64,000 bases of DNA, taken from the NCBI GenBank assembly GCA_976551045.1, contig CDPCPM010000050.1, positions 15,562,001 through 15,626,000 of the forward strand, given 5' to 3'. This stretch comes from Glaucostegus cemiculus. Taxonomy: Eukaryota. Made by a program: the position numbers and the translations under genes. Of this stretch, positions 4,172 through 37,135 are shown in pieces. Every line of letters begins with the position of its first letter. Within the stretch, counting starts at the first letter, position 1. Below the pieces are notes generated by a model. The model did no database searches. It was given only the letters and a program-made list of their open reading frames with translations, and was not told where the DNA came from.

Positions 4172-5419
4172 GTAATAATCCCCTGGATTTTCAGAAATCA
4201 TGAACAAAAGACCATAACCATTCTGACTGGTATTTTGCATGTAACAGAACATGTTTGCTGCTAGTACTTAAGAAGCCAGGGAACAGCAACACTGAATAAG
4301 TTTTTCAACGCCTGTTGGTATAAAAGGGATGAGAGGCTGTGAACAGTTCACGCTAGTGGCTGATGACTGCTGATCAATGGAGAACCTGGGCTTAAATATC
4401 TAAATATTTCAAATTATGATTGGGTGATTTGGTTATTTGGCATGGCGCTTTGGCTATGTGGTTGCAGTGGTGGCAAAAATTTCTTGATTAATTAACAGTT
4501 ACGACCTTATGCCCTCAACAAACAGTGCAATTTTAAATGATTAACATTGTTGTATTCCATTGAGGATGAAAATTTATTCTGTATGTGTTTAACAAGTTCT
4601 ATTACTGCTTCAAAATTTCTTTACACTTACTTGGATATATTCAAATATTTGAGAATACCATAAATAAGTGAACTATGCATATAAAACTGGCAGTCCTTGG
4701 TCTCTTGAATCAGAATTAATTCAACTTTAAGTTTTTAAAGTAGTTTTAGCATTTTCAATCTCACAGTTAATTTTGTTAATATTCAGTTCATCAAAAAAAA
4801 AATCACAAGTGAGGGAAGAAATGGCAGAGCTTTAGAAAATTAGTATTGGAACAATTACCAAACACTGAAAGACCATTTGAGTTGAAGTGGAGTACAGCAA
4901 CTCACATTCAAAAAGAGATTGAGATATAAACTGAAGACAAATTAGTTTAACTTCTGTTTTGGGGAAAATGCACAAATGCTTTTTACAGGGGCCATTATTT
5001 GAAGATCACTGATCAAGAATTAACAACAATAATTAACAGCAGGAATAGTTTTACCTCTCCTTCTTGAATTCTTTAAAGTAATAACTATTAACCAATGAGA
5101 GCTATCTAATGGAACTGATTTACTTAGATATAAAGAATATCATAAACTCTCTTGATTGCAGATTTCTAAATGTATAGAGCCTACAAAAGGATGAAGTACT
5201 TATAATCAGTGGGAAGAGATGTCTTAGTGAGTCAAGTGGTATATAGGGGGGAGAAAAGGTCTGGTGTTGTTTAAAGCTCTGCACATGTCTGAATCAAAAT
5301 GTTATCATTTGTATACAGTTTAAACTATTTTCCATGTAGTCAAAAATAATACTTACGTGAAGAGGAAACCCTACATTCCACATCGGGCATTTGATTGTAT
5401 TCAGCATGTCAGCACAAGT

Positions 5420-6440
5420 CCAGAACTTTTTCCAAATCATAGGAATTTATACTATAGTAGGCCATTCAGCTCATGGTGCCCGAGTCAGGCAATAAAAAGA
5501 GAGCTCTTTAAACATACCCCTCCACCATTTCTCCTGGTCTGTAGCCTTATAGATTGTGCTTTGTCAAGTGCTCATTCATGAATTTGTTAAATGAATGGGT
5601 TTTTGCCTCCACCTTTTTACACTGAATTCTTTTTTTTCTTCCAATCTTTGGAAGATTTTCCACAACCCCCTCTAATAGTCCTATCAGCTCTCTTAAATCT
5701 GTGGCTTTTAGTTAATGACCTTTCTGCTGAGGGAAATGGATTATACCTATTCACTCCATCCCGATCTCTTCTAATTACGTTTATCTCAATTTAAAGTCTC
5801 AGCCTTCTCTGCTGAAGAAAACTTTTAGCTTGACAATATCCTTGTCAATACCCTGTATATCTTTTCCAATGTTATCTTCTTATGTGATAACCAGAACAGT
5901 GAAGTACTCCAGCTGTGGCCCAACAAGGATTTTTCATTGCTTTAGCGTAATTCCCTGCTCTTAAACTCTGTCTCAGCCAATAAAGGACAGTATCCTGTAT
6001 GTCTTCTCAATTACTTATGTATTTAACCTTCAAGGATTTGTGGACATCCAATCCAAAACCCCATGATCATTCAGAATAATATCTATTCCTTCAGCCACCC
6101 TGAACACAGATTATCATTTTGGACTCTAATAGGCCCTACTCTTGTTATCCTTTTGTCTTCTGTGCATTTCAGAAACAAATTGGAATGTTTCTTGATTTAG
6201 CTTGCCAATATTTTTCATGGACATTCTTTACCTTCCTAACTTTCTTCTTAATTTCACTCCAGCACTTTCTAGCCCTACTGCAAAACTGAGTTGATGGATC
6301 CGTGAAAAGACTTTTTTGCTTTTGCCTTCTTTGTATGTAACTTAGCATCCAGGGAAACTTGGATTTGGGATTCTCGCTCTTTTCCTTCATAGGAACATAT
6401 TTGTACATGCTCCTTCCAACTGACCAGCACCATTCCTTAT
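5420..6440 (-). mobile_element. CR1-type LINE fragments
   Basis: Reverse-strand CR1 3' tail (gtaggccattcagc) and ORF2 remnants (ccagaacagtgaagtactccagctgtggccc). Confidence 0.55.
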
Positions 6441-9400
6441 AACCAGGTCTAAAACTGCCCATTAAACCTATCACAAAAAAATACTTTTTATGTAAAACAT
6501 TGTGCCTTGTGCTAAATAAAATTTTTGAATTTTGTTTTAACCAACAGTAAATTCAAATCAAATAAATGACATGGAATTGTTGTAAGAGACAGATATGGGC
6601 AAAATGAAGACTGTAGGAACAAGTCTGAGGAACTTTTGGACCAAATCCTGCCAGTTTTATCAGGAAACTTTGGATGTCTTCAAAAATAATGCTAATTAAA
6701 TGTGGTAATTCTGATGTAAGAACAGTTCTGTCCTTGAGTAGAAACATGGTGATTGCTTTTGGATCATCAGTGATAGTGTTGCCTAAAAATTAATTGTCAA
6801 AACAAAAGTATAAGATATATTTGGCAAGTTATGACAAAGCACAACTAACACATTGCTAATCTATGTGTAGGAATTTGGGCAAACCCTAGGGTCTCAAATT
6901 CAAATGCAAATTTCATATTAAATGATTCTTGCATTCCTATATCATTCAGAAACATGTACCTTACCTCTCTGAAGATTTATCCAACAAGTTCCCGAACTAC
7001 ACCAACCTGTAAAATTCTAGTTTTGATCCACAAACAATATAGCGATAACTCATCACAGCAAAAGTATAAATGAGCTACAGTTAGCTTTTTAAACCATGCC
7101 ATTGGCCAATTCTCATTTCTCATTTTGATCTAGTTACCCTCTTAAAATAGACGAGTGTAAATGATGAGTGACAAAAGGGTTGGTACCTAGGTGAAATGCT
7201 TTTCCCAATCAAGTTGCTAGCTGCTACATGTTCATGTAGGAACTGAACAATGGAAACTAAATTAGGCACTGGAATATGCTTCTGACTCCATATTCTTTAA
7301 AGAACAAATTATTACAGGAAAGAAAGGAATAAAATCATCAAGCATTTTTTTTTGGGATGCAGCATTCATTGAAATGTAGAGTTAAAGCAAAATGGATTGG
7401 ATGGTATAGGAGTGGCTTCTTTTCAGATTGATAGTTTAATCATCAGAGTGCCGCTTAGTGGACATCATTGCATGCAAGGGTTGTAGCAACTATTCTACAC
7501 TTTCCTTAGTAAAATTAGATTAAAAGGGAATGGTATATAGTGTAAGACAGGTGAAGACATCCAATGTTTAAATAATTTCTAATTTGAGCAATCCAAGATA
7601 CTACTATAAAACAAATACCAGAACTAACTGCAGTAACTGTTTTCTCAGCATTGACATACTTATATGCATGTTGCTTTCACAGCTGCACAGAATGAAATGC
7701 ATTATATATGATGATGAATAACTCTGCTGTAAACCCCTATTAATTATAGGTTTATAACTAGTTTTGCTATTATTATTATTATTTGACTGTACATGTAATA
7801 TAGTTTAAAAACTAAGGTCCATCTGAGCAGCAATTAATGAAGGCAAGCTACTGAGTCCCTGACTTATTTTAAAAAGATACTTGCAATTATGTTTTGTAGA
7901 GATCAAAAGAAGATTATCCACTGCAGCTTTAGTTTTACAAAACACTTGGGTTTTGATTTGTTTATTCATGGGGAAACTTTACACAGAAATGTGAATTTCT
8001 TTAATAATGACTGAAGTCAAATATTATTTCAGGATTGTAAAATGTTTTGGGATTCCCCCATTGTTATTTAAGGTTCTATACAATTTTTCCCCTTTATTTT
8101 CATTCCAGTAGCTTTCCATTAGGAACTGATTAGAATCCAGATTTTTGTTAAATTTATTTAAATTATGTAATGTGGATTTTGAAATTAGACTGACCAATCT
8201 AATATCTTATTGTTTGAACTGAGGCTAGCATCATTTCAGAGTCTGAAGTTTTCCCTTAAGTGCTTTCTATATTTCTCAAACCCACCTGAAGCAGAGGTTA
8301 ATGACTCTGAGTGTAATTTGCATTGTTTCATTGATCAACGACAATGGTGACTATCTTTCTGTTCTTCTGTTCTGAATTCCTGTTCAGATCCAGCATTATC
8401 AGGCATCAGTTGTCCTTGTATATTTCCCATGAAAAGCCGTGAGAAAAACCTCACATGGAAGGTTAAATATTTCATTAGCATTCTGAATGACTGAAGATGC
8501 CTTGGAATTCATTTGTGTAACTTTTGTGCTGCCAATATATATTTAAGCAATCAAATTCTCTTGAACAATACATTAATTTTATTAACATGCCAAATTAATC
8601 TGAACTATCATTTTGAAATATTAAAGCAGATTATGTAAGTTCAGAAAAGAAATATGTGTCCAATATTTCATTTTGCAAACACATCAGATTATACAGGTAA
8701 CAAATGGATTTATATTTAATGACTCTTAGAAGAATTGCTAGCCTCAAGAACTGATTAAAAGAGAAAAATCATGATTTCAGATTATTCTGTGAGGTTCATT
8801 GCAATTTCATTTTGAAAGTGGATGAGTTGCCACAACTCTACCCCTTTGAAAATGTTGCCACTTGCTCTCGTTCCTTTTTGTACCATCACGTCCATTGTGG
8901 ACTTATTCCTTACTGGCTAAAAATTCAACTGGCCATCAGCAGACCATATTGGCTTTAAGGACTTTGACTGGTCCAAGCAAGCCTTTCAACGATCTAAATA
9001 GTCAAATAGCTGTCTTAATTCTCAGTTTTATCCCAAGTACTGTAATTTAATTCCTTCATAATTATAAAACGTAGCCTTACTTTATTCTTGTATGTGTTGC
9101 TGAAGCATCATTTGAAAGAATGGATTGAAGTACTTGCTGCTCAAGTACTCAATGTTTTGTCATTTTTGGAATTTTTGAAGTGCATCTTTTGAGCAGTCTC
9201 CTTGTGTGCACCCAGAGTAGTTTAAAAATAAAATCATGAGTTCTTTTTTCCAAAATCTTCCAGAAACCAACTAATTAAAACAAACTAATATGATTTTGTT
9301 TCGATCTCAAGTTATAAAAGTTTAATTTTTCTCAGTAATGTGCATGGATAATCAACTCCAAACCCAAGTACAATGAAGACCACCTGCATTTTTTCTGAAT

Positions 9401-9956
9401 GCACAATGAGAAATTCATTTTAGTTTATAATGCAAGTGAAGTCACATTCAAATTACTTAAAGTATAAATCTGTACAGGAAATTACAAGAATATGTTACTT
9501 TGAAGGATTTTGTGTTTTGCTCTTGATTTATTCTTAGGATGTTTTACCATTTCTAGCTGTAAATCTGTTTCTGAATAATTAGACTAATAATGTTTCAAAA
9601 TACAGAAGCACAAGGGGGTTTACAGTAGTAAACTAAAATTTAAGTATTAACTTCTGATTTGAACAATGCTGATATTAAAATGTACACTGACTGCATGAAA
9701 CTTTTGAATCTGCCTTTTTAAAACTGTATTTCTTTTAATTGTTCCCTATTTATCCTTGCCAGTGCATACCTTTTGATACCATTTTCCATTAAACATTTCT
9801 GTTTGCTTCCAAACTGTCCAATTTACCCTTTGCTTTCCTAACTGTTATAAAAGGCAGAAGGTGCTGGTGGATAAGCCTGCATGTGGCTCCCTCCTGTCGT
9901 GCTGGCATGTGATGGTGGCACTGGTGTGTTCTCTTCCTCTCCCTTTTTACTAACAG

Positions 9957-10061
9957 ACGCAGACCAAACTGGAGCATGCCCGCATTAAGGAGCTTGAACA
10001 GAGCCTGCTCTTTGAAAAGACCAAAGCTGAAAAACTCCAGAGAGAGTTAGAAGACACTAGG
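9957..10061 (+). CDS. CLIP1: CLIP1 35-aa cassette exon (the restin insert)
   Basis: ttttactaacag|ACG; [35 protein letters not shown]; AGG|gtaatg; 105 nt, phase 0/0; nearly identical to the recalled alternatively spliced 35-aa insert of mammalian CLIP-170. Confidence 0.95.
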
Positions 10062-10949
10062 GTAATGGATTTCACAGTTTCAATGAACTCCATTCAATTA
10101 TCAGCATGTACCCAAAATGGATATAAGTTGCTAACATTGACATTGTTATATCGGTTTATCCCCGCAAAAAAAAAGTTATCACTTAGCTAAGGACATTTTA
10201 AGCATCATTTATATGTATTTTAGAATGAGATTTTGCTATGTGGATCTTCAAAGAATTTTTTGCATTTCTGGGTTGTTACTTGTTGATGTATGCTTACTCC
10301 ATGTCCTACCTTAAATGAGTGAGCTAGTTGACAATCTGCTCACAAATGTTTGGTGGTGAGTAGTCAACAAATGGGAACTTCGTGGAAGATTAACATCCTT
10401 CAATTTTTCTGGCTTCTTCTCAGAAAAGTGCTTCCACGCTGCAACTCCCAAAAGACCTAGCTGAAAATAACTTTGCAGTTAAAACTGTCAATGGGTGCAG
10501 TCCCACATTCTACCACAGAGTGGTGCATTACGTCGAAGTAGCAATGTGATAAGTGTCACCTTTGTGGTTGGTTACATATAGAAAATGTTAAATGTAAATT
10601 TTAATTAACTTTAGAAAATCAAAATTTATTTTTAAAGATAAAGATAACTGTATAAGTAGACACTTAAGAACAATTTTTTTTGAAAGATGAATATCATCTC
10701 CAAAGAAAACTGGAGGAAATCTGTTTCATTGATTTGTGACCTAGTTACAACAGTTAAGGTTTCATGTCTTGCACCTACTACCTTATATTATATCGTTTTC
10801 AAAGCAGGTTGATCTGATGATGCAATTTTATTTTGACATTTGCTTTTTTAAACCTTACTAGTTTCACTGGTTTCTCCAGGCCTTGCACAAACTATTAACT
10901 ATTAAGCTGATTAATTCTCTGTAGTTTCCCACAGTTTCATTCCTCTCCT

Positions 10950-13050: not shown

Positions 13051-14182
13051 CTTTTTCCTCCTTTTGTGTTTTAATGATATTTACATTGAAAAGAATGTTA
13101 GTTGACTTCACACCTGAGGAAAACAGTAGCAAGAATATATTGCATCATAGTTTTCTTTTATTGCCCCCCCCTTACCTCTTGAAGGCACTCATTGCGTATA
13201 AGATACAATGGCACTTTGTCCAGGTGATAATTTGTCATCCACATTCCCAAGGATGATAACGTAATCCAGCAGAGACAAGTCTGATTCTTTTTGCACAGAA
13301 TGTCCATGTCCATGTTCCAGCAAAGAAAAGTGGAAATATACAGAGCAACAACCTTGGGTGTTTCTTTTTAATTAAACCCTTCCAGACTCTGAGGAGCTAT
13401 CACAGTTTTTGCATGTTCATCTAATTCAGCAAAGATTGAGAATATATTTATTTTTTTATTAGTGTTCACAGGAAAAATATTGTCATATAACCAGGGTAAC
13501 AAGCCAGTCAAATGTCTTTACTATTTGATTATGCATTTTCAATGTAACCTACACTGTAAAACAAATATAGCAAAGGTACTAAAGGGTGTCAGTGGTCATG
13601 GAATTGCACTGGAACGTGCATCACACCCCATCCCACCACACCCCCTACTCCTTTCTCCTAGGGATTGTGATGCTTGTTGTAATCCAATTTCATGGCCATT
13701 GATTGCCCTCTGGTACGTTTGCCCAAGTGCCCATTTTTCATGTGTGTGTCAACGGTGAAGCCGAGATCCCTATTGGGTATTACATCCAACCCATTCCTAT
13801 TGGCAAACCATATTTTGAGGTTTCACTGCAGAGTGATTGAAAGTGAGAGCCCTGTTTGACTTGTTGCCCCCAACCAAGCTGTATGCTGTTTGATTTCATG
13901 TAATTTCACGTTATTCCTTTCTCACACATCTACTCATTTATGTTCTACATTAAACCTGTAAGTTGTACTTGTTAAAGTCGACTGGATGTGCATCTGGCCA
14001 ACTTGAACATTTGATTAGATGGTAACACTATTAAATGATATTGTAATTTGCTTAACGATATTAGATGTAAAAAATGGTTTTGGCTTTTATGACATTAGAA
14101 TTGTAAAGAAATTAGAGAACATATCTTGGTATATTTCACTTGGTTAAATTTGTGTTTCATGGTGGGGGGGATTGCACTGCAG

Positions 14183-15124
14183 GTGGCTACTGTGTCTGAG
14201 AAGTCTCGGATTATGGAATTAGAAAGGGATCTAGCATCGCGCACAAAAGAAGTTTCAGAGCTTCGACAAAGACTTGTGAGCATTGAAGTTTCTGGTAATG
14301 TGGACAGTGCACCTTTGTTGGAAGAAATTTCCTGCATGCGAGATAAGCTTGCAACAATGAGCAAAGAACATCAAAATGAACTTAAAGCATCGAAAGAAAA
14401 ACTTGAAACCTCAGAGGAAGATCACCAAAAGGTACTTCAGCAGCTGCAAGCTGCGACTGAAAAGGTATCCAAGGAGAATGTGACTCTCAAGTCCAAATTG
14501 GATCAAGCCACTACTGAAAACTCAGAGGTTATTAGTCTATGGAAAAGTAAGCTAGAGTCTGCAATAGAATCTCATCAGCAAGCCATGGAAGAACTCAAGT
14601 CTTCTTTCAGTAAAGGAGCAGATTCCCAAACCACAGAGCTTCTAGAGCTGAAAAGTAACTTTGAAAAGCTTAAAGCAGACCATCAAATGGAACTTGAGAA
14701 TATTAAAATACAGCATGATTTTGAAAAATCAACCTACCTTAAAAAAACTGAAGATTTAAAATCTCAGCTATCAGAAATCACTGTAGAAAAGGAGAAAGAT
14801 ATAGATAATCTGAAGTCACAACTGGAACATGCTACAAATCAACACCTGGTAGAAATGGAAGAGACTTTGACAAAACTACAGGAAGCCAAAGAGAAGGTAA
14901 AGGAATTGCAGATTTTGCAGTCCAAGAACAATGAACAGGCACAAATTGTAGAGGCATTAACAGCTAAAGTAGCAGCAGCGGAACAAAAGGTGATGGGTTT
15001 TGAATTGCTACAAGAAGTTGAAGCACAAGGTAGAGAAGAAATCAAAAGACTTGAAGAGAAGCTTGCAGCTGTTGAATCACAGTTGAAAATCAGTGAAGCT
15101 TTAAAGGTTTCTGAAGGGAGCAAG
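14183..15124 (+). CDS. CLIP1: CLIP1 large coiled-coil exon
   Basis: ctgcag|GTG; VATVSEKSRIMELERDL...LWKSKLESAIESHQQAMEELK...VSEGSK; AAG|gtatgt; 942 nt inside ORF 14126..15190. Confidence 0.95.
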
Positions 15125-16399
15125 GTATGTATATGCTTTTTCCTTTTTTTTACTTCAAAAGTTTTTTTTAAATCAAACATCATCTATTAAAATGACAATT
15201 TGTATAAATGAACCTCTAAAGTTTTTGTTAAATATTTTGTCCATTTAGTGCAGTTGGAAAGATATTTCCTTAAACATGACAATTTAAACATATTTTCTTC
15301 AATAGTGAAGCATAATGCAAAAGCTGAACTTTTGTTCAATTTGATTCATCAAATTTTAAATCAAAATCAAAAAGAAACATCCAAACCATGATATTAAGGC
15401 CCAGATTTTTCTTTCTGAGTGAATGTGATGTGTATTTTTTATGCAGGAAAGGATAGCTCTGACTTCCATTGATGTAACATTTTAAAATATCAGTTTGTCC
15501 CATGTTAAATCTGAATTAAAGAATTTCTGTGGAGGAGATGGTAAAGACCAAATAGTTCTCAATTTCTTTCAAGATCAAAATAATATCCACATGTTTCTAC
15601 AGACACTGGTTATCATAAGTAACACTTAAACTTGGCATTGAAACTGAGAGTCAAAACCATTTCTAATAGCAATTTGTGCATAGTGGAAGCCTTGTTTGTC
15701 CAGAATGAGAAGAGCATGATAGTCCACAAGTCCTTCTGTGTTCATGAAAATCATACTTGTGTAGGCTATGCTCATTATGTATTTGTTAATAGAGAAGTAT
15801 TTTGTTAAACATCAAAACTATAATGCAACAATCCACTATGGAGAACGTGCATCTTTGCTATCCAAGTGTGTGTGCACTTGCAAGCTGTTAAGGTTGTTGC
15901 TATTGTTGAAATTTAAACAAAACCTTGAATTTGCCAATAGTTACTTGGAAAAAGATTGTTCATCTCAATCTATTTAAGAATTGCATTAGCTCTTACCTTC
16001 ATGAAAACTGGTTATTCATGCTTTTTCATGTATAGCTATGCTAAATGTAAGCAAGGTTAACATTCTCAATTACATTGTACGTAAGTATCCATATTAATGC
16101 AATCATGTTATTGCGCACTTCTGAAGATTTACTTCCTTCAGATACATTATAATTTTGAGTAAGTTGTATATATTGAAATAATTTTTTGTTAGCAAAAAAA
16201 AATATTTAAATAAAAGTTCCTTTAATAAAAGCAGAAAATGCAGGAAATGCTTGAACAAATCAGGCAGTATAACAAAATTAGGATTTAAGATCACTGATCT
16301 TTCATCAGAATTAGGAAAAGGTGGAGATTTAAAATATTTTAATCAAATACAGATGAGGGAAAAAGGGTGAGCTGTGAAAGACAGAAGTTTAAATTAGAA

Positions 16400-21161: not shown

Positions 21162-21289
21162 GTAAGTTATATTTTGAAATGCACTGAAATTCAATTTCTG
21201 ATGAGTTTATTTTGTAGAAAGTTTGAATCTTGACCCTGGATTGTGTATTTAGTCATTTAGAAATCAGGCTGGGTTATCATTCACCAGTA

Positions 21290-21890
21290 ACGCTCCTCTG
21301 CTACATTGATGATTGCATTGGTGCTGCTTCCTGCACCCGTGCTGATCTCGTCAGTTTCATCAACTATACCTCCAACTTCCATCCTGCCCTCATTTATTTG
21401 GTTAATGTCTGACACCTCTCTCCCCTTTCTGGAGACAGATTATCCACTGACATCTTCTACAACCCACTGACTCCCACAGTTACCTTGAATACACTTCCCA
21501 CCCAGTATTGTAGGGATGTTATCCCCTTCTCCCAGTTCCTCCATATCCGCCACATCTGTTCCCATGATGAGGCTTTTAATTGCAGGACGTCAAAGATGTA
21601 CTCCTTTTTTTTCAGTAAACGGGGTTTCCCTTCCACCATCATCAATGCTCACCTGTATCTCCTCCATTTTCTGTATGTCTGCCTCACTCCATTACCTCCC
21701 CCCCCCCCCCCCCCCCCCGGGCATAATGACATAACAGGGACAGGGTTCCCCTCATCCTCACCTACCACCCTCATCCAACACATCATTCTCTGCAATTTCC
21801 ACCACCTCCAACAGGATCGCACCACCAGGCACGTCTTCCCCTCTGCCCCCCACCCCCATCTCTGCTTTCCACAGGGATCGCTCTCCAAAA
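21290..21890 (+). mobile_element. Penelope-like retroelement RT fragment
   Basis: LLCYIDDCIGAASCTRADLVSFINYTSNFHPAL (YIDD catalytic motif), followed by CRDVIPFSQFLHIRHICS and QHIILCNFHHLQQD; frameshifted; C21 run at 21698-21718. Confidence 0.8.
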
Positions 21891-22320
21891 TGATGTTAAG
21901 AATGAGGGACTTCAATTACAATTATGTGAATATAATTGAGAAACTAGATTTATTCCACTTGCAACAAATGAAGTTGTAAAGAGATCCTGAAACAAATATT
22001 TAAAATCATGAAGAGTATAGACAAAGTAGACAGAGGGAAATGTTCCTATTGGTGGAGGAGTCGAGAGCTGGGGGATATAGAATGGAGGAGACTGGCAAAA
22101 GAACCAAAAGTGGTTTAACCAGTGAGTGGTTAAGGTATGTATGCACTGCAGGTGTAGTACTGGAGCATATTCAATTGTTGCTGGATAATTATCTGAAAGG
22201 AAATAACTTGCAGGGCTATGGGTAGGGTGTAATGGTGTGAGGACAAGCTGAATTGTTCTTGCAGAGATGTGGTACAGACTTGGTGGGCTATAAGCATTCT
22301 GTGATTTTTGTAAATCAACC
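21890..22320 (+). mobile_element. CR1-type LINE 3' end
   Basis: gagggacttcaattac...gagaaactagatttattccacttg...aaatcatgaagagtatagacaaagtagacagagggaaatgttccta...gcagggctatggg. Confidence 0.7.
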
Positions 22321-24266: not shown

Positions 24267-24457
24267 GTACAAACTACTATTTGAGCATTGCAAGCCAATG
24301 TGCCTCAAAAAATTATAATCTCTTCCTCTGTAAAGGAATATAGCGTGTGCTGTATTGTTCTATGGTTCTATTTCATTAAAAATACCTCCATTATTCACAG
24401 AACTTTATTAACTAACATCTCTAGCAGTTACTGTATAATTGTTATTATAAATTTTAC

Positions 24458-24690
24458 TTACAGCGTGGTAACATGCCCTTTCGGCCCAACGAGTCCACAC
24501 CGCCCATTTTAAACCCCCAAATTAACCTACCCGTATGTCTTTAGAATGTGGGAGGAAACCGGAGCACCCGGAGGAAACCCACGCAGACACGGGAAAACGT
24601 ACAAACTCCTTGCAGTCAGTGACGGGAATCGAACCCCAATCACTGGCGCTGTAACAGCATCGCGCTAACCGCTACGCTATCGTGCTGTCC
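24458..24690 (-). mobile_element. Young tRNA-derived V-SINE
   Basis: Reverse strand: A box TAGCGTAGCGG, B box GGTTCGATTCC, V-core CCCGTGTCTGCGTGGGTTTCCTCCGGGTGCTCCGGTTTCCTCCCACA; CpGs retained. Confidence 0.88.
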
Positions 24691-25058
24691 CGTGTATATT
24701 TATAACTATACAATTTAGGTCATTTAGGTGAAGGGATAATTCACTACTTGTGAATTAATGTATTAATTTGAATGTGGGATAGATTATTCTGATTAATATT
24801 CCCTCAGTTGTACAGCATTATGATGGCAGAAATTATTTTTGATGTAAATAATTAGACAAATTTATTGAATACCATAATTTTCTAATTATTAAAGTTTTAT
24901 GCACAATGTTCTTCTATATTGAAATTTTACCTTGAAATTAAGAAAGAAGCATTCCATTACATATTTATTTAGAGAAGTTATGTTGGATGTCAATGATGAC
25001 ATGTGACATTTTTGTGAAGGTGGAAGTTGCAAAAATTATTCTTTGTTTATTCCCACAG

Positions 25059-25274
25059 CAGCAGGAGGTGGAAATGCACAGCACACACGCTAAGGAAATG
25101 CAAAGCAACCATGAGAAAGTGGTTTCAGAAATAAATAGGAACAATGAAACTTTAGTGAAGGAGCTCAAGACAAATTTACAGGAAACCAAAGAAGCACTGA
25201 AGAACTCTCAAGAGAAGAGTAATCAAAGAGAAAAACGCATAGAAGAACTGAAGAAGCAAATGGAACAGGTCCAG
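25059..25274 (+). CDS. CLIP1: CLIP1 exon
   Basis: tcccacag|CAG; QQEVEMHSTHAKEMQ...IEELKKQMEQVQ; CAG|gtattc; 216 nt (72 aa, the same length as the recalled mammalian exon); tandem NAG acceptors make the start ambiguous by 3-9 nt. Confidence 0.88.
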
Positions 25275-26869
25275 GTATTCCTGCAACTATTATATTTGAC
25301 TTGCTCATAGAGGGTATTGCATTTTTTTGCACTAGTTGTTGGGGATTGATATGGTGAAATGAATAACTTTTTTGTCTGCATCCTAGATGTGCTGGGCTCT
25401 TTATTGGAGAGAAAAAACTTTTAGTTTAAATTTTGGATATTTTTCTAATTTGATACTGTGCCTGTAGAATGATATATTTTTACATAAAACATTTTAATTA
25501 AATGTTAAATACATCATAATACATAAACAAATATATCATACAACTAAGTTCTATATTCCACATTTGGCTTTTTAGGACAATTTCAATTTCACATTCTACA
25601 CTTAAAATTAAATGGCTTGTGAATCAGCAGCAAGTTACTAATATTTCAAAGGAAACCTTGTCTCAACTCAATTTGTATATTTTTTCACCTTTGTAAATGC
25701 TTTAATCTTTCAAGTTAGTGAAACTCATAAAATAAATGATTTCTGAGGATTAGAAAAAGCAACCAAAGCACAGCTAATACACATCTTTGATCACCTCTGT
25801 TTAGTGTTTTACAAATTATCCATTTGTATTTGGTATATTAGGAAAAGTAGTAAGCATTTTAATCATTTTCATAGTAAGTATGGTAGATAATATGTTAGAT
25901 ATTTTTATTTTTTTAATATGCTAATTTCTGTATAGTATTTCGGTAAATTGCATTTGTAACAGCAATAGTAAGACACTTCTTATTGTTTGGCTGTTCATCT
26001 GCATCCTGTGGTTTTATTTCTTGCTTTCATTTTCCATTCATCATGTTTTATAATAATCCTTGGTGTTTACTGTGCTCTTGCAGAAAATGAGAAAAACTGT
26101 CAATTGAAACAAGAGTGTTTGGGTTTCTCAGATTTATCAGAAACAAATGTCTTTTTGCAGACTTACTGTACTTAATAATGGCACTCTCATAACAACTTAG
26201 AGACACAGAATTAGATGGGCCCTAAGCAGTTTGCATACAACAATGTCAAGAAGTAAATTCATATTCTTGCCTGATCTGTACTTAGTCAGTGTTATTATGC
26301 TTAAGGCTTCAACGTTACCGTTTCAGTTGAATTAAAGACTGAAAACTGACTCCCCCCCCCCCCCCCCCGATAAAAACAGTCAACAATAAATGCAATTAAA
26401 TTTAAATTTTCATTAATTTTGCAAGAATGTTCTTTTCAGTGGCTTGGCAATAATGACCTGGTAAACCATTATAAATTTAAATACATTAATTTGACTTTGA
26501 ATATACACCCATTATCATAACCAATTTCAAGTTAATTGCTCCTAACAGAGAAAACACAGCATTCTTTTCAGACTCATAGTGACACCACCCTGCTGTACCT
26601 TACCAACCTTGGCCATTTTGGCCACTACCTGTCCCTATGAATTACTTGCCTGCTTGGTTGACATATGGTACTTGTTGAACAGGAATTGCTTCCAACTGGA
26701 AATATGGAAGGCTGAAACCGGGCTCTGCAGCTGCTACTACAAACTCTGTTCTCTGGTCACTTCTATCCCTTTCCCAATAATACTTTAAAGCTGCACCAGA
26801 TTGTACATGTGGCAAGTTTCACCCAAGGTGGATTTTGAATGATATAGCCATTCGTCCAATAAGAAAGCA

Positions 26870-27480
26870 TATTTTTACCTGTTACTTAACTCCATGCTGT
26901 AGTTTATCTGTTCCTAAAGCCTTTATCCATGGCTTTGTTATCTCCAAACCTGACTATACCAATCACTCCTCTCAGCCTTTCTCATTCTACTCATGGAGAG
27001 CAAGGTAAATCAAAACCTATTCTCTTACCTTTCTAATCTTCTTCAGGACCTGTTGATCCATCAACTACCGTGCTTCCAGTCTAAGGGTTTATCAATGCCT
27101 GGGTATTAAACTTATCCTTCAGATCTCTTCATGCCCTTGCTTTTCCCTATATCTGTAATCTCCTCTAGCTTCACATTGTTCTGAGATGTCTGCATTTGTC
27201 CTTTTCAGATCTTTTGAGCGTCTTAAAAATTCTATTATTAGTGGTTGTGCCTTTAGCTGGCAAAGCCCCACTTGGAAATTTCCTCCCTAAGTTCCCTGCT
27301 GCTTTTATTTCCACCAGAGCATTGTTTAAATCTACTGATCAAGCTTTTGGTCTTTGTCCCAGGATCTTCTCATGTAACCTCATTTCAAATATCATTTGGA
27401 AACACTCATGAATCTCCTTGCAACTCTTTAATCACTCTAAAGGTGCTTTGTAACTGCAAATGACTGGTTTAACAAATGCT
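26870..27480 (+). mobile_element. L2-type LINE 3' fragment
   Basis: tttatccatggctttgttatctccaaacctgactataccaat (IHAFV.S.LDY.N-like) and tail tgatcaagcttttggtc. Confidence 0.65.
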
Positions 27481-28174
27481 GTGTTATATCAGGTAACTTT
27501 GCTCCAGTAAAGATTCAAAGTATAGTTTTAAATTTTAAAAAAATGATAATGTGTCTATTCTCACACTCGTGGCTTGCAAGTACATTGCAAATATATGCCA
27601 TTTTTGATTTCTACCCTTTCCCCTGATTTTAAAAACTACTTTTAAAGAGCATTCAAACTAGACATTCCTCCTTTATGGTGTAATCAATGTATTGACGGGC
27701 TAGGCATACTTCACACCTTCGTTTCCATTTTTTTAAAAAAGATAACATTTTATATTAGCTGATATTTATAAATAAGGCAATGATATCTTAGATTGTAGGA
27801 TAAACCTTAAACTGTACTATGTGCATTAAAAGTAGTAGAATTACTGCAAAGTCTGCCCTTATTCATTTGGTGAATGGAATCTTAACTATTTCAAATGACA
27901 AAACTTTGCATAATTATTAGATAATTTATGGTCCAAAGTGCTTTAAGAAGCCTTAGAAAAGTTTAGTAGATCTGCTTAGTTTTACATTAATTACAACAAT
28001 TTTGTATTCCTCCATAAATCTGCTGAAAAATCCAAACACTGCTCTGTTATGTTTTTCTTTTTTAACGTTTGAGCAGCACACTTTACCTTTTGTATTGTCT
28101 TTAATCCATGCTGTTTTCATTTGTCTGCTTGACTATGTTTTGTTTTTACCTTCTTCCCCACTTAAATTCTGAAG

Positions 28175-30460
28175 TCTTTAACCAGTGAGCTAGCAACAGC
28201 CAAATCTCAGTATGAGCAAATAGCAGAGGATGTGAGAGCTTTGAAGGGAGATAAAGAACAGATGATCCAGCAAAGCGATGCACTAAAGTCCGAGAAAGAG
28301 TCCTTATTTTATGAACTTTCAGAGCTGAAGTTGCAGTGTACTTCCCTACAGAAAGAGCAGCAAGTGTTAGAGACAAAGAATGAGAAACTCCAGTTGGAAA
28401 GAACAGCATTTTTAAAAGAGAGGCAGGATTTTGAGAGTACTCAGCTACAACTTTGTCTGGAAAAGGATGCTTTGGTCACTGAAAAGGACCACTATTTCTT
28501 GGAAGTCAAACGTTTGGAGCAGCAGCTTGATAAGTTGACAAAAGAAAATGAGGATCTCCAAGCCTCACAGTCAGATCTGAGCAAACAGTTGGATAATGTT
28601 CAGGCAAAAAGCAAAGCCTCAGAACATGAACAAGCCCAGCTGCTTCAAGAAAAGGAAGAGTTGTTATCGACCCACAGGAAAATGGTTACAGAAAGAGAGG
28701 AACTTACAAAAGAAAAAGACAAAATTACTCAAAATTTTGACAAGTTGCGTGAAGAGACAACAGTTGCTCTTGAGAAGCTGGTGAAAGAAAGAGATGAGCT
28801 GATGGTGGAAAAAGATTCTATTCTATTGAAGTGCTCAGAGCTTGAAGCTCAATGTGAATTTTTAGCAAAGGAGAAAAGTCTGTTAAGATCAGCGCATGAT
28901 GAGCTAATATCTGAAAATGAAGCTCTAAATAAGGAGAAAGACCATCTTAGTTCAAGTTTACAGAACACTATCCTTGAAAAGCAATCTTACATTATCTCAA
29001 AAGATCAATTGCAGTGTAGTCATGATCATTTGAAGAATGAGCTAGAAAAATACATGAAGGAAAATGCAGAACTTCAGGCCTCAAAATCCAGCCAATCAAA
29101 ACTCTTGGATGAGATTAAGAATAGCAGGGAGGTAACAGATTCTGAACGTGTTCAACTGCTTCAGGAGAAGGAAGAGCTAACAACATCTCAGAGACAACTT
29201 ACTGTAGAGAAGGATGAACTAGCTAAGGAAAAAATGGAGCTGACCGCAAAGTTGCAGAAATCCATTGAGGAGGCAGCCACCATCACGAAGCAGCTGAATG
29301 AAGAAAAAGAAGCTCTGAAAACGGAGAAAGATGCACTTTGGCTGAGGCAGTCACAGCTGGAAACCCATTGCGATATTTTACAAAGGGAGAAGGAGACCTT
29401 GGAATCAAAATGCAACATGCAAATTACAGAAAATGAATCTCTTTCAGCTGAGATAGTCGAATTCAAATTGAAGCAACAGGAGCTATTCTCTGAAAATGCA
29501 GCCATTGTTGCAGAAAGAGATCAGCTCCTCGTCAACAGTGAGCTTTTAAAGCAAAAGCTTGACGAATTGACCAAAGAAAATGAAGAGCTCCAGGCCTCAA
29601 AGTCAAGCTTCTGTACACTTTTGGATGAAATTCAGAATAGCAAAAATATTGTGGATGTAGAAAAGCATTCCTTGTTGCAAGAGAAGGAAAGACTAGTAGC
29701 TGAACTTCAGGACCAGTGCTCTGAAAAAGAACATCTTACTTGGCAGAAGGTGGAATTAGAGAAAAAGTATAATAAACTGAATGAACAAGTGAGAGTACTT
29801 GAAAAACAACTAATACAGGAAAGAGATGCAGCAAAAGTGGAAAGAGAGGCTCTCAATGTGGCTCATGCAGAACTTGAATGTCACTTCCAGCTATTGACAA
29901 ATGAAATGGGTGTTCTTAAAGCTAAGCACGATGAACTGCTTTCAAAAAACAACGTGCTAATAAAGGAAAAAGAGGTATTACATGCTGAACAAAGTAAGTC
30001 TGCTGGTGAGAAGGAAGACCTAGCAGCTGAGAAGAATTTGCTAGTATCCACCACTGAAGTGTTGAAGAAGGAGATTGATATATTAACCAAAGAAAAAGTA
30101 GAATTCCAGGCTTCAAAATCAAATCTTTTGAAACTCTTAGATGAACTTCAGAATAGCCAAGAGATATCTGAGCTGGATCAAGTAAAACTGCAGGAAGAGA
30201 AGGATAACTTGCTGGCAACAGTGCTAAAACTTCAAACAGAAAAAGAAGAACTGGTAAGAGAGAATAGCAAGTTGACAGAATCCCTCTGCAAGTTACAGGA
30301 AGAGGCTGCTCTTTCCGCTCAAGACAAGGGAGAAACTGAAGCCAAACTGCAGCAGCTGACGTGTGACAAGGAGGTACTGCTGAAACATGAAGAGGACCTT
30401 ACTTCCAAATTAAAAGATCTTCAGGTTCATCAGAATATTACTTTATCAGAGAAGATTGAG
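28175..30460 (+). CDS. CLIP1: CLIP1 giant (2286 nt, 762 aa) phase-0/0 coiled-coil exon with internal 172-aa repeats; probably alternative
   Basis: Long pyrimidine tract then ctgaag|TCT TTA ACC (SLTSELATAKSQYEQIAEDVRALK...), in frame with ORF 28232..30481; donor GAG|gtacca; E/K/L/Q-rich heptads; it sits between two exons that are directly joined in canonical CLIP-170. Confidence 0.85.
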
Positions 30461-32178
30461 GTACCAATTATAAGCATTTAGATTAAATTCAGAAAGTTAT
30501 GGGCACATTTGTTTACTAATGAGTGCATTAACAGGTTTGGTGTTGTATCTTTTAAAATCATTATATAACAGTATCGACTGTATATTAGAATGTATTAATT
30601 CTGGGAAGTGATTTTTGTGGCTTGTCTCTCCAATAATTGGTGTGGGAATTTTGAACAAGTAATTTCATTAATCTTAAAAAAAAGACTGTTTCTCATTTTA
30701 CATGAATTAGTTAACATTACATGCAGAAAATTTATTCAAGTGTGTGAATAGAATGGAGCTTAAAGTTTAACAGAGATAGTAAAACAGTGTTTTAATCCAA
30801 TATCCATTTAATCCTGTTTTGGTTTATCAGCAGGACTATTTTACAAGTCCCTAAATTTAACAGATGATTATCTTCAAATCTTTTTCTTATTTGATTCACA
30901 ACAGAAATCTTCATTTTCTTTTTGTTGCAATTTTGTATTTTATATATAGTTATTTCTAAAATCTTAGTACTTCAAATTTATCTACAGAGAAACCACAGTT
31001 TACTGCCAACAGCTAACGTCAACAAAAGCAGAAACAATTTGAAATGATTGGGCAGCAGTATACAAGCTGTTACATGAGTGCATGTATCGTACTCAGCCAA
31101 AGATGTGAGAAAACTCAGAGGTTTGATAGTAAACTATGATAAATTTGCTAATCATGGCTGGGATGTGAATAGTGTTATCTTAATTAGCTCAGAGATAGGA
31201 AGAAAGTAAAAGATTGCATTTACAGAGTACTAAATAAATGTCTTGGTGTTTTATTCACAAGGAACTGCTACTTTCAAAGTAGGGGCATGATATTTCTTTT
31301 ATTCTTCTGTGAGACACTTTGGAATATTTTGTTATATCTAAAATGCTTCACATCAGTAATTTGTTCAACTAGTGGAAGTTAAAGAATAGAGGAATATTAG
31401 TCCCATCTCACTTGTAACTCCTGTTCACTATCACTTCTGGTTAACGGTGAATGTACTGGAGTGAGTATAAACAGCAGGATTACAGACGGATGTGATTTCT
31501 TCTTTGTGCCTGTGGTTGGATAGTTGTGATGCTTGGCATCTCAGTTCCTAATTGATAGTTGAGCATTCGATAATACACCAGACTGGTGTCAGGACCCATG
31601 GACATATTCTCTAGCATGAGTACCTGTGGTTCTGAAGAAATCTGGTGGGTCAGGGGTTTAATCTAATCCATTAAAATTTAATAGGTAAATCTTCCAATAA
31701 AATTCTAATTATACTTCGTATTTAAGATTAGGCATGTAATTTTCTTATTTCACAAGATAAGTTGACCTGTTGGCAGTTTTTTTATGTCTACGAGAATTTC
31801 CCCAATGTTAATTATTTTAATTCAACAAAAATCAGTGGCATGTTTGGCATGAAACTGTGTCTGGCTCATTAAAAATCTAATTTAACTGTACATATTTCCT
31901 GCAGAATTTTAATGAGAACTTAACAGTAATGGCAACTAATATTCAATGAAATGTGAAAGCATAATTTCACAAAAAATCAAGTCAAAATTTCTTTAAATTT
32001 TGCATGAATTTCAACCATCTTCCACTTTTCAAAAGTAAACATATTACGTGCACAACATAAATTAACTTCACCTGTCCACATGAAAGGTGTGCTTTCATTA
32101 ATTTTAAGAATGTTCCTGTAACATGTTTCAGTGAAACTTTAAGCCATTCATTCACAGAGGATAATTTTCTATTCTTAG

Positions 32179-32316
32179 GCTTCCAGAAAAGCTGAAGAGG
32201 CTGAACAGTCATTAGAGCAAGTAATGAAGGAGAAAAATATATTGGACCAACAGAACATTGAAACTTTGGCAGAATTGGAAGAGTCCAGACTGAAGAACCA
32301 AAAACTTGAAAACGAG
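32179..32316 (+). CDS. CLIP1: CLIP1 exon
   Basis: attcttag|GCT; ASRKAEEAEQSLEQVMKEKNILDQQNIETLAELEESRLKNQKLENE; GAG|gtaaga; 138 nt. Confidence 0.9.
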
Positions 32317-32599
32317 GTAAGAACCAACTCGTTGCTTTGTTATCTGTTGGCTCCAGAAAGTTAGACAATGTACTTTATAAAGTATTGCTGTGAAGCAGTA
32401 AAAGGATTGTAAAGGCTGGATGAAAAATATAGTGGCTGACTCGTCAGTTAACTTAATGCAGGAACGCAGATATGGGTGCAGTCTATTTAGCCCATTCGGT
32501 CTGTTCTGCCATTAACTCACTTGCAACCTAACTGCATATCTTTTTGCTTTAATCTTTACATTTTTCATAACCAAAGGAGTTGTCAGTTTCAAAATTAAA

Positions 32600-33560
32600 G
32601 TTTCCACCCCCTCCTGATTCCATCCACAACACATATAGTTCATCCACAGCCTTCCCCTATCTGCTTCTGGTTCCATCTGCCATTCACCTCTCCCCTAATG
32701 GTTTCCATTATCACCTCCTTTACTTATCAGAGTACAGTACTTGGTGACCCTTTGTGTTCCGACTTATCTCCCTCCAGCAGCTCAATTTTTTTCTCTCCTT
32801 GTCTGCTTCCATCTATTATTCACCTGCCACTGTCTCCCAACTCCACACCCTGTTCCCTTTCTGGTGTAACCTGCCCATCATCTTCCACCCCTCCTCAGTC
32901 CACCAATCACCTCAGTCTCCTGTCTAATCAAAGACCCCACCACCCAGGCCATTCTCTCTCCTCTCCTCTTCCATCAGGTAGAAGATTCAAGAGCCTGAGG
33001 GCACTTATCACCAGACTTAAGGACAGCTTCTACCCCACTGTGATAAGACTATTGAAAGGTTCCCTTATATGATGAGATGGACTCTGACCTCACGATCTTC
33101 CTTGTTGTGACCTTGCACCTTATTGCACTGCACTTTCTCTGTAGCTGTGACATTTTAATCTGTACTGTCATTGTTTTTACCTGTACTTACATCAATGCAC
33201 TCTGTACTAACTCGGTGTAACTGCACTGTGTAATGAATTGACCTGTGCGATCAGTATGCTAGACAAGTTTTTCACTGTACCTCGGTACAAGTGACAATAA
33301 TAAACCAATACCAGTACCCTTCTCCATAAGATTTAGGAGCAGAATTAGGCCATTCAGCACATCAAGTCTGCTCTGCCATCAGTCGTGGCTGATTTCCTGC
33401 CTTCTCCCTGTAACACTTAACCCTTCTGTTCTTTATACTGGCCATCTCACCTCTCCATTCTGTCCTGATGCAAGGTTTTGACCTGAACCATCAACAGTTC
33501 CTTCCCTCCCATAGATGCTGCTTGAGCTCCTTCAGCAGGTTATTTGTTGCTCCAGAATTA
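32600..33560 (+). mobile_element. Penelope-like 3' region interrupted by Rex1 and CR1-tail insertions
   Basis: C/T-rich 32600-32930 resumes at about 33420 (tctttatactggccatctc...cctgatgcaaggttttgacctgaacc...cccatagatgctgcttg). Confidence 0.55.
32932..33320 (+). mobile_element. Rex1/Babar-type LINE 3' end
   Basis: PHHPGHSLSSPLPSGRRFKSLRALITRLKDSFYPTVIRLL, then a 3' UTR ending gtgacaataataaaccaataccagtacc. Confidence 0.8.
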
Positions 33561-33619
33561 AAGTTAATTGAGCATTATTTTTCATTTATCGAGAAGGATT
33601 ACAAATTTCTACTGTAACT

Positions 33620-33840
33620 TAAAAAAATGAAATGCTGCAAATTCTAAAAAGTCTGCATTAAAATTGAAAATGCTCAACTAGTTAGGCTGTATCTGTGAAT
33701 AAAGAAACAGTTAATGTTTCAGGTCCATAACTTTCAAGTTCTGGTGAAAGGTCATTGACCTAAAATGTTAACTTTGCTTCTCCATTCACAGGTGAGCCTG
33801 ATCTGCTAAGTATTTTCAACAGTTTCTAATTTTTTCCAGC
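33620..33840. mobile_element. Fold-back element made of inverted Penelope-like termini
   Basis: aaagaaacagttaatgtttcaggtc is roughly the inverse of gacctaaaatgttaactttgcttct; the outer arms are also similar. Confidence 0.6.
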
Positions 33841-33964
33841 TCTGTGTGTTTGAGTTTTCTAACTTCATTCCTGAAAGCCCTAGTTCCATTTAAGTGTTTG
33901 TCCCAAGCATTTTCTTTCATTAATTAATATAATAAAAATGGTATGCTCTCCCTGAACATAACAT

Positions 33965-34215
33965 TAAAGTCAAAGTTGAACTTATTGTCATATGCAGAAA
34001 TACATGTAGGCACAGGTGCACTGAAAGACTTGACTTGCAGCAGCATCACAGGCACATAGCATATAAGCAGCATTCACAAGTAAAACATAAATTAATCATA
34101 AATTATACACAAATTTTACAAGAAAGAACACAAAACAAAAAAAGAACAAAGTCCATTTTAGGGCAAAGTGATCAAAGTAGTCAAAGTGTTGCTAAACTGT
34201 AGTGATTATGTTTTT
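33965..34215 (-). mobile_element. Rex1-like LINE 3' UTR
   Basis: aaagtcaaagttgaacttattgtcatatgc...gacttgcagcagcatcacaggcacatagcat; the ttattgtca motif mirrors the gtgacaataa tail. Confidence 0.5.
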
Positions 34216-34249
34216 CTTGCTGGACAAATAAAGTAAATGCAAATGGCAG

Positions 34250-34600
34250 CTTGTATTTATGAACCTCTTAATATCATAAAATGTCCCAATGTGCTTCAGA
34301 GAAACACGATCACACTGATATTGATAAAGTCAAATGAAATATTAGGACAGGAGACCAAACCCTTGATCAAAGATGTAGGTATTAAAAAGAATGTTAAAGG
34401 AGGAGAATAAGGCAGCAGACTAGGAGAGGAACTCGAATTTCAGCAACTAAAACACTGAAAACCAGTGTTTAGTCCTAAGGCAAAGAAAGCAGGTAATGCA
34501 CAAGAGACCAGAACGGAAAAGTGCAATGCTCTCTGTTCTGCAGTACTGTGGTAGGTTCCTGAGATGGTGAGAAACAAGACTTATGATGTGCACTTGAGGG
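34250..34600 (-). mobile_element. L2-type LINE 3' end
   Basis: cttgtatttatg...tgtcccaatgtgcttca...ggagaccaaacccttgatcaaagatgtaggtattaaaa. Confidence 0.55.
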
Positions 34601-35329
34601 TAAGAATTTTCTGTCTTTGATATTATCCCTCTCTCTTGCACCTTCCACCAACAATTTCTACTTACAGATTTTCACATCTCAGTTCAACTCTTCACCTAAA
34701 TCTTTCTGGGTTTCTGAGTCAGACTCACAATGTATAACCTCTTCTTTGTGATTACAACTTGTACCATGGCCAAAAAAAATGGAGCATAATCGTGTCTTTA
34801 CTGGGGCTTGTGTGTAAGGCAAAGTTGATGCCCTAAGTTCTGTTAGGATGGGCAACCAGTTGATCTCCAGAACCACTTCTACCTTTTTTTCCTCTATATA
34901 TGTAGTCTCTCTTGCTGAACATGCCCCAGTATTCCAAAACCACATCAGCAACAAATTACACAACCATCGTAGCTTGTCTTGTCTGCCACATTTGTTCTCG
35001 TTATCAGAGAAATTCCCTTGGTTTCATCCATATTTTGCTGCTTATTTCTCTTTCTCAGATCGCACGAAGGGTCCCTCACCTGAAATATTAATTGTTTCTC
35101 TTTCCACAGATGTCGATAGACCTACTTAGTTTTCCCAGCATTTTCGACTTTTGTTTTTCTCTATACTGTGTATCATGTTGGCTCACTTTTTCTTATTGTA
35201 CATGCATTAGTCTAGCCTGCCAGGCAGGTTGCACGATCTTACCATTAACAATTTATTACACACAGACCTAGAAGCCCAGTGTGCTGATTATTAGTACCAT
35301 TAAGCGAGTCATCCCAGACATGCTCTTTG

Positions 35330-35500
35330 TTCTACACACCCCTCCCCCACCTCCTCTCACACAGCAAACTAACTTGCATCCCTCTTTTTCCAGTTCTGAG
35401 GAAGGGTCACAGATCTGAAATATTGACAGTTTCTTTTTCCACAGATTCATCCTGACTTGCTGAGATTTTACAGCATTTTCTGTTTTTGCTTCAGCATGTT
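35330..35500 (+). mobile_element. Penelope-like terminus with hammerhead-like core
   Basis: ccagttCTGAGGAagggtcacagatctGAAAtattgacag...ccacagattcatcctgacttgctgagattttacagcattttctg; a related copy lies at 35050-35160. Confidence 0.6.
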
Positions 35501-37135
35501 TATCATGCAAGTCATAGGTGACAGAGTTAAACTGTTACACATTTATAACCCTTCTATTATTCTTATCAGAACCTGTTAAAGGGATCATCCATGTATACAG
35601 TGGTCGACTATGTTCCATTAATATCAACCCAGAAAATCCTTCCTGCCCAGCTGGTAAACTTCCTGTACAGTTTGCTGAAGATGATTCTTCTGCCTTAGTT
35701 TCAAAAGAATAAATAGAAGTACAAAAGCAGATATACTGTCTATGAAAATCTGCTTTCGTGTTTAAGATGATTTGGACCACTATTTTCTGTTTTATTTTGA
35801 ATGAAAGCTAAAGGTTTGTTTTAAAATTGATGTAAAATAATCCTTTCAAAAATAAAATGAGAGGAAAAAGGCTAGCTTCATTTTTGACAGTAAGATGTTC
35901 CATGTTAGCTTTATTTTTTGGAAATAATACCAATATGTATGCTTGTTTATATAATATAATCAACTTTGGACTTCGGATTTAAACAAACTGCTTGATAATC
36001 TGAAGAGATGCACGTGATTCAACACAAGTCAACAGTGTACTGTACTCATATTGCTGAGATGCTGTGCTTCATGATTTTGATAATATTGTCACACAGTTTA
36101 TAGGCATTTAATACTGAAGTGTCTAGTATCAATGTTACAATGCTGTTTACAGCTCAAGAAAGGCAAATTTATTTTGGTAAAATATACTTTGTAATGTCTT
36201 GCCAAAATGACAGAAAGTAACACTATGGTGAGAGAGATTATTTTATAACTTGATCAAATGAACCTTTTAGGGATGTTTGCAGGAACTCATATTAAGTACT
36301 TAAAAATAGTGATGAGAAGCTGAGGCTATGGAGCTTCAGATGATGTCATTTGTGCATAAAAGCTGATTTGTTGGGAGTGTTATAGCTGAAGATGCAGGAA
36401 CCTGTAGTAGTAGGACAGCTGGTTGGAGGCAGTACACCAAAAGCTTTGTGTTATGCAACTGAGCACATGACAGATGATGGCAGTGAGCATTCAGGTTCAT
36501 TATCTAAGGCATATAGTTTATCATACCTTCAGAATAATTTTTCAAAGGAAGAAATTATCTTAATATCATCAATAATGGATATCAGAGCTTTGCAGGATAA
36601 TTATTCCCCTTATTACTTCTCTGTACAGCTTAAGGTATGATTTTTAAGGAACAGATGATGCTCAGTTTGTTTTTTATATAAATAGCCCAGTGAACAGTTA
36701 TGGTGTATTCTGGTAATCATTAATGAGTATGTTAAATGATTTTATTGCAATTAAGATAAGCTGTAGTCTGTTGGTAGCTATTGTAATTTTAATTTTAAAA
36801 AAATGGGGATATATTTTAAAATTTGCAGCATTTAGTTTTGGTAGCAAAACATAAAGTACTAATCAGGCATGCATTTAAAAAGGTTTTAATCTTTAACACA
36901 AGGGTTTGTGATGAAGATAATTCTGTTTTACTTTAGGTGATCTGTTCTGCAATTTTGAGGCACAGAATATGATTGTCTTCCTACAGCCTTATGTTTTTTG
37001 CTAATGTGTTAGAGCAGATCCAATCTCTGATATTCAGTGCAGTGAGAGATGTCAGCTATTTTCTATTTCTATTTTTATTCTTAAAGATTCTCTTCTTTTT
37101 CCCAATGCAAAATACTTTTATTTTTCCTTTATCAG

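Follow-up and report, generated by a model that had tools for sequence, protein, structure and literature searches.

The locus described here raises the question of whether a stop-free stretch of 2286 nt, lying between two rod exons of CLIP1, is used as an optional exon, and what it would add to the encoded protein. Canonical CLIP-170 (~1430 aa) consists of a CAP-Gly head, a rod and a zinc-knuckle tail, as does the product encoded in the window (the whole 64,000-nt stretch of Glaucostegus cemiculus DNA that was analysed), and it lacks the insert that this stretch would encode.

The giant exon and its host gene

The open stretch and its immediate surroundings are arranged as follows, with all coordinates given in the window.

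25059–25274, + strand: upstream constitutive CLIP1 rod exon with a phase 0 donor (CAG/GTATTC), placed by RNA joints 24266>25059 and 25274>32179 and by shark protein mapping
28077–28172, + strand: AG-free zone before the acceptor, 96 nt, 73% pyrimidine
28173–28174, + strand: acceptor AG of the giant exon (AAG/TCT), seen in the sequence and as the point where the X3 and X6 contigs depart from the genome and continue with upstream-exon letters
28175–30460, + strand: giant CLIP1 cassette exon, 2286 nt, 762 aa, with no proline, four glycines and 38.5% A
30461–30466, + strand: weak donor GTACCA (GAG/GTACCA), seen in the sequence and in joint 30460>32179 of X1 and of two raw X22 reads
32179–32316, + strand: downstream constitutive CLIP1 rod exon, placed by sequence, RNA joints and protein mapping

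The reading frame of the giant exon comprises 762 codons without a stop, whereas the other five frames contain 22–70 stops, and in 1000 base shuffles the longest open frame reached 176 codons (mean 75). Both ends are in phase 0, and the exon is therefore frame-neutral as well as coding and longer than 1 kb. Ten acceptor regions of the window were scanned, several of them from approximate exon starts, and this AG-free zone is the longest. A preliminary description of this DNA had given the same coordinates, length, open frame, 0/0 phase, AAG acceptor, GAG/GTACCA donor and 96-nt AG-free zone, and all of these hold; its estimates of ~88 kDa of extra mass and ~110 nm of added coiled coil agree with our predicted 88.2 kDa and with 113 nm computed at 0.1485 nm per residue. 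It overlooked the internal 172-aa repeat of the exon.

Adenosine makes up more than 33% of the giant exon, and its most frequent 5-mers are the purine-rich words AAAGA, GAAAA and AGAAA. However, base composition by itself does not show control by SAFB proteins, because the constitutive exons are equally A-rich (39.0% versus 38.5%) and GAAGAA is rarer in the giant exon (2.2 per kb versus 3.8 per kb).

The host gene is CLIP1. The constitutive exon 14183–15124 matches, among 120 matches listed, the CLIP1 of five sharks at 70–77% and that of bony vertebrates at 52–56%, which makes a cartilaginous fish the likely source; shark CLIP1 aligns exon by exon along the window with every flanking exon placed. 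The flanks of the giant exon are joined gap-free in 9 of 12 canonical CLIP1 proteins (5/5 shark and four bird or tortoise proteins), the remaining three having given no usable flank match; the two flanking exons are thus directly joined in canonical CLIP-170, as had been proposed. In its own genome the giant exon has a single DNA match and the 172-aa unit that it contains is absent elsewhere among 31 scored candidates, only the four units of this exon being found, and a second copy or paralogue was rejected on these grounds.

A second large rod exon (~948 nt) lies at 14180–15127; canonical shark CLIP1 contains it, and it is free of the 172-aa unit. At 9954–10091, an exon of ~35 aa occurs in three shark isoforms and is missing from a fourth (P0031), and from these alignments it is likely to be a small cassette exon. 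The 11-aa alternative exon of birds was not found in a motif scan of 4172–9953. Broken frames with a reverse-transcriptase-like YIDD word at 21227–21976 are probably an old retroelement within an intron; 21413–21976 gave no Pfam match. Intronic high-copy repeats at 24302–24735 and 32548–35585 collect reads of related species at very great depth.

Inclusion and skipping in RNA of related species

A search of sequencing runs found none of the window's own species, and the RNA data come from three related species (6 of the 24 listed runs, tissues coded): organism A, which is ~97% similar to the window, and organisms B and E, which are ~88% similar. The "RNA" label of runs X1, X2, X3 and X6 is an automatic guess, and their spliced joints and empty introns fit it. 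For organism A, the skip joint 25274>32179 is present in X1 (depth 51.1), X2, X22 (11 raw reads) and X23 (7 reads), and the 3′ inclusion joint 30460>32179 is present in X1 (depth 6.8) and in two raw X22 reads whose shorter side spans 61 letters. Stranded reads of this organism map to the giant exon in sense orientation at depth 1–6, with a depth close to 0 in the neighbouring intron bins.

Runs X3 and X6, from organisms B and E and from two studies, each yield one 2344-nt contig over 28173–30461 with no gaps and with 264 or 268 substitutions, and the intron bins beside the exon have a depth of 0. The loose ends of these contigs match the neighbouring exons: at the 5′ end 28 letters agree with the last part of the upstream exon, and at the 3′ end 27 letters agree with the first part of the downstream exon (21–24 letters alike, compared by eye). 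The 5′ inclusion joint is seen in these contig ends, which are shorter than the 31 letters required for a bridge call; raw reads across it were not listed in the runs examined, nor was a skip joint listed in X3 or X6.

Both forms are therefore found in organism A, and contigs with full inclusion come from organisms B and E, which bears out the cassette behaviour and the exact boundaries that had been predicted, with splicing at the predicted ends in three related species and skipping in one. Of the junctions proposed earlier as a check, 25274–32179 and 30460–32179 were recovered in organism A, and 25274–28175 is supported by the short X3 and X6 contig ends. Inclusion varies between runs. By depth, which for contigs is a poor measure of inclusion, the data suggest ~12–30% in organism A and perhaps about half in X6 (depth 132 versus 221 and 295). 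At 25261–25501, a depth-3 X6 contig that continues past the upstream exon into intron sequence is unspliced RNA or DNA carry-over.

The 172-residue repeat and its vertebrate counterparts

Self-comparison and a unit profile divide the giant-exon protein into four full units and a tail.

28220–28735, + strand: 172-aa unit 1 (residues 16–187)
28736–29251, + strand: 172-aa unit 2 (residues 188–359)
29252–29767, + strand: 172-aa unit 3 (residues 360–531)
29768–30283, + strand: 172-aa unit 4 (residues 532–703)
30284–30460, + strand: diverged tail (residues 704–762), at most a partial unit by self-comparison, in which the 9-nt deletion of organism A falls

The protein is 32% identical to itself at a lag of 172 residues and 31% at a lag of 344, where 500 heptad-block shuffles gave no more than 17%, and the DNA is 49% identical to itself at a lag of 516. 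The four full units (residues 16–703) are 33–39% alike, and each is built from 23 heptads and one hendecad (an 11-residue step). A profile made from the window units scored above 40 bits in 30/30 insert-bearing proteins and in 0/120 canonical CLIP1 proteins, while a profile made from non-window units scored the four window units at 95–120 bits and three canonical rods at no more than 5 bits. An origin of the unit in the canonical CLIP1 rod was rejected, since canonical rods contain no match.

In rabbit, bichir and one teleost, as in the window, 172 is the top or near-top period, and in comparisons with rabbit and axolotl the best match of each unit is the same-numbered unit in 8 of 8 cases. 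Frogs have a fifth unit and a 158-aa unit, and teleosts have partial units. In a tree of 22 units from five species, which excludes the five Lampris units, the unit 1 copies of all five species make up one clade (97/92) and unit 3 forms a group (92/93); window units 2 and 4 have no supported placement, and two frog units fall inside the unit-2 group. E313 and E331 of unit 2 are among the few residues that hardly vary. Because the units match by position across vertebrates, and given the unit tree, the duplications are likely to be older than the split between cartilaginous and bony vertebrates and the extra frog copy to be later; the exon would then have arisen by tandem duplication of a 172-aa block within one exon before that split.

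The d positions of the heptads are 84% hydrophobic (71/109 Leu) and form an unbroken Leu series over 700 residues, and the heptads run on with no proline and only the four glycines. The a positions are mostly Lys, Arg, Asn or Gln (49% K/R/N, 25% hydrophobic) and the g positions mostly Glu. The pattern L..E[KNR]..L occurs at 2.1–3.9 per 100 aa in five giant exons versus 0.6–0.7 in canonical rods. A monomer structure model is almost all helix with no compact fold (pLDDT 72.5, pTM 0.26), and its low-confidence breaks near residues 219–241, 301–321 and 512–523 are the artefacts expected when a dimeric rod is modelled as a monomer. These features fit a product that forms a continuous rod, presumably a parallel homodimer by analogy with the host protein, which may be less stiff than assumed given that only 25% of a positions are hydrophobic. 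The heptad register across the exon junctions was too noisy to read.

Searches with the giant exon returned 28 longer proteins, all with a CAP-Gly domain, of which 25 either bear the name CLIP1 or clip1a or are fish and frog proteins that have CLIP1 domains but no name. A profile (HMMER) scan gave 58 matches, and the strong scorers among the ten checked belong to vertebrate CLIP1 or are unnamed fragments most similar to it; weaker matches (e.g. P0156, P0157 and P0158) look like compositional coiled-coil similarity. A transposon or foreign origin was rejected, as every strong placeable match is a vertebrate CLIP1 insert, and no Pfam family scored above the cut-off for the giant exon. Word-limited or representative-only protein searches found no cartilaginous-fish protein with the insert.

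Inserts homologous to that of the giant exon occur at the same CLIP1 exon junction in rabbit (752 aa), squirrel (756), hyena (756), boa (762), axolotl (773), bichir (~882), frogs (~920) and teleosts (~730–820). These sizes come from flank anchoring, in which two rows of one ten-row set were mis-anchored and one had no upstream match; sizing by global alignment was dropped because it split the insert in most proteins. The window insert is collinear over its full length with the mammalian inserts, at 32–34% identity over 757–763 aa, and orthologues overall are 26–37% identical. The start of the mammalian insert as given in the preliminary description (SLT..L..AK) matches those of rabbit, squirrel, hyena and fur seal. 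Frog CLIP1 models P0014, P0015 and P0018 (3090–3110 aa) carry an extra Sec1-family domain (PF00995) and are likely read-through with a neighbouring gene, which we take to be VPS33A. Pipefish models P0023 and P0024 (1717–1760 aa) contain the giant insert and are ~400 aa shorter elsewhere.

Among more than 400 listed places, 33 substitutions were readable, comprising 14 synonymous and 19 non-synonymous changes and no stops. The resulting ratio of 0.37–0.56 (p = 0.07) is weak direct evidence of purifying selection. Organism A has a 9-nt in-frame deletion at 30287–30299, where organisms B and E keep the 9 nt; this deletion and the absence of gaps in the other two organisms fit coding constraint. 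Placing 266 random substitutions in the exon left 0 of 2000 simulated copies stop-free.

Function, rival readings and known systems

Our data are best explained by an optional CLIP1 giant exon, the counterpart of the mammalian one, which encodes ~113 nm of predicted coiled coil in four 172-residue repeats and is likely to give CLIP-170 a longer tether and altered head-to-tail folding; we hold this reading with good confidence. The exon would be skipped by default, as its length and weak acceptor and donor suggest, together with SAFB binding in mammals. Inclusion would add 88 kDa and ~113 nm of predicted parallel two-stranded coiled coil, giving a protein of roughly 2200 aa. The canonical CLIP-170 rod measures 95 nm by force microscopy and ~135 nm by electron microscopy as cited in the available text of Lansbergen et al. 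2004 (PMC2172020), which also shows head-to-tail folding of the protein. The rod would thus be nearly doubled, from ~95–135 nm to ~210–250 nm, and the greater reach between head and tail would change how the microtubule-binding head folds onto the zinc-knuckle tail, and hence autoinhibition.

The regularity of the repeat can also be read functionally, with each 172-aa unit bearing a binding site and the sites spaced at ~25.5 nm, roughly the length of three tubulin dimers, so that the exon acts as a periodic docking scaffold. In its broadest form the exon would be a 450-million-year-old ruler of four to five ~25-nm units with one stutter each, which a splicing switch turns into a periodic, lattice-spanning scaffold beyond mammalian spermatids. 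The period that the window shares with rabbit, bichir and one teleost, the positional identity of the units (8/8 against rabbit and axolotl), the presence of E313 and E331 of unit 2 among the near-invariant residues and the confinement of the unit to this exon among the 31 own-genome candidates all speak for docking. Yet orthologues that are merely 26–37% identical, the 158-aa unit of frogs and the partial units of teleosts sit poorly with a fixed spacing. A tubulin dimer is 8.2 nm long, and 25.5 nm is about 1 nm off three of them. Moreover, the available text of the manchette cryo-ET studies gives 8-nm and not 25-nm repeats (PMC12326331, PMC13373224). We consider the docking scaffold, and equally the ruler, unlikely, although the scaffold ranks first among the rivals.

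Less probable still is an insert that packs loosely and bends, and that mainly serves to alter autoinhibition or self-association of CLIP-170 instead of its reach. Its polar a positions, the stutter in every unit, the enrichment of L..E[KNR]..L over canonical rods and the three low-confidence breaks would suit such a segment, but the lack of proline, the scarcity of glycine and a d-position Leu series unbroken over 700 residues do not, and the breaks are what a monomer model of a dimeric rod would be expected to produce. This reading is compatible with, and does not exclude, the longer tether. Splicing noise comes last: the weak splice sites, together with the low inclusion seen in organism A (~12–30% by depth) and fast divergence, could describe a functionless leftover included by leakage. 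An open frame of 750–920 codons kept at the same junction from the window lineage to mammals, contigs of ~88% identity that span 2289 nt gap-free in two organisms, a third organism whose deletion is in frame, and the simulated expectation of 0/2000 stop-free copies nearly exclude it.

The giant exon is retained in teleosts, a group in which most species lack a manchette. For this reason, and because inclusion appears high in X6 and is detectable in N2A cells (PMC10901741), a spermatid-only role is doubtful and a role beyond spermatid manchettes is suggested. In the available text of the cryo-ET studies (PMC12326331, PMC13373224), CLIP-170 is placed at the perinuclear ring or merely cited and the long isoform is unmentioned; the literature available links the exon to the manchette through citations on CLIP-170 as a whole.

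The window exon is the counterpart of the giant exon already described in human and mouse CLIP1. Ilik et al. 2024 (PMC10901741), as far as the available text goes, define a class of giant protein-coding cassette exons that includes CLIP1, whose human exon is 2268 nt long, is spliced in upon SAFB depletion in human and mouse cells, is included less when SAFB1 is overexpressed in N2A cells and is expressed in spermiogenesis with enrichment in spermatids; SAFB proteins exclude it in most mammalian cells, and a fall in SAFB, for example in elongating spermatids, leads to its inclusion. We draw the correspondence because 2268 nt equals 756 codons, the length of the squirrel and hyena inserts, the human exon having been compared by length. 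The two exons share the gene, the junction, cassette behaviour, an A content above 33% and nearly the same size (2268 versus 2286 nt), but the window protein is ~32–34% identical to mammalian inserts, and SAFB repression and spermatid enrichment are mammalian data. The existence and splicing control of the exon were thus already known in mammals, and of the earlier suggestion of a poorly characterised isoform conserved in jawed vertebrates, the conservation stands, with same-junction inserts from fish to mammals; the exon itself had already been reported. The available text of PMC10901741 makes no mention of the 172-aa repeat or of non-mammalian vertebrates, and our literature search, which left out most subscription papers, found no paper that addresses either the repeat or a cartilaginous-fish version of the exon.

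The present analysis adds an age for the exon, evidence of its splicing in RNA of cartilaginous-fish relatives, and a map of its repeats. The locus likely places the giant exon in the jawed-vertebrate ancestor, with alternative splicing persisting in cartilaginous-fish relatives, and offers a way to ask whether giant exons have been under SAFB control for as long as they have existed; the modular map, with four units and five in frogs, lets a spacer be told from a scaffold.

The closest relatives of the window exon are the predicted long CLIP1 isoforms in RefSeq and UniRef (2050–2370 aa; mammals, boa, amphibians, bichir and teleosts), which carry the same insert and 172-aa unit. Giant cassette exons of ANK2, ANK3, MAP2, MAP4, MAPT, NIN, MPRIP and DST resemble that of CLIP1 in being kilobase-sized, frame-neutral and tissue-restricted and in lengthening a cytoskeletal linker, but no sequence relation to the CLIP1 exon was seen among the named top matches. 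Several giant exons of other cytoskeletal genes encode disordered regions, whereas that of CLIP1 encodes a repeat coiled coil.
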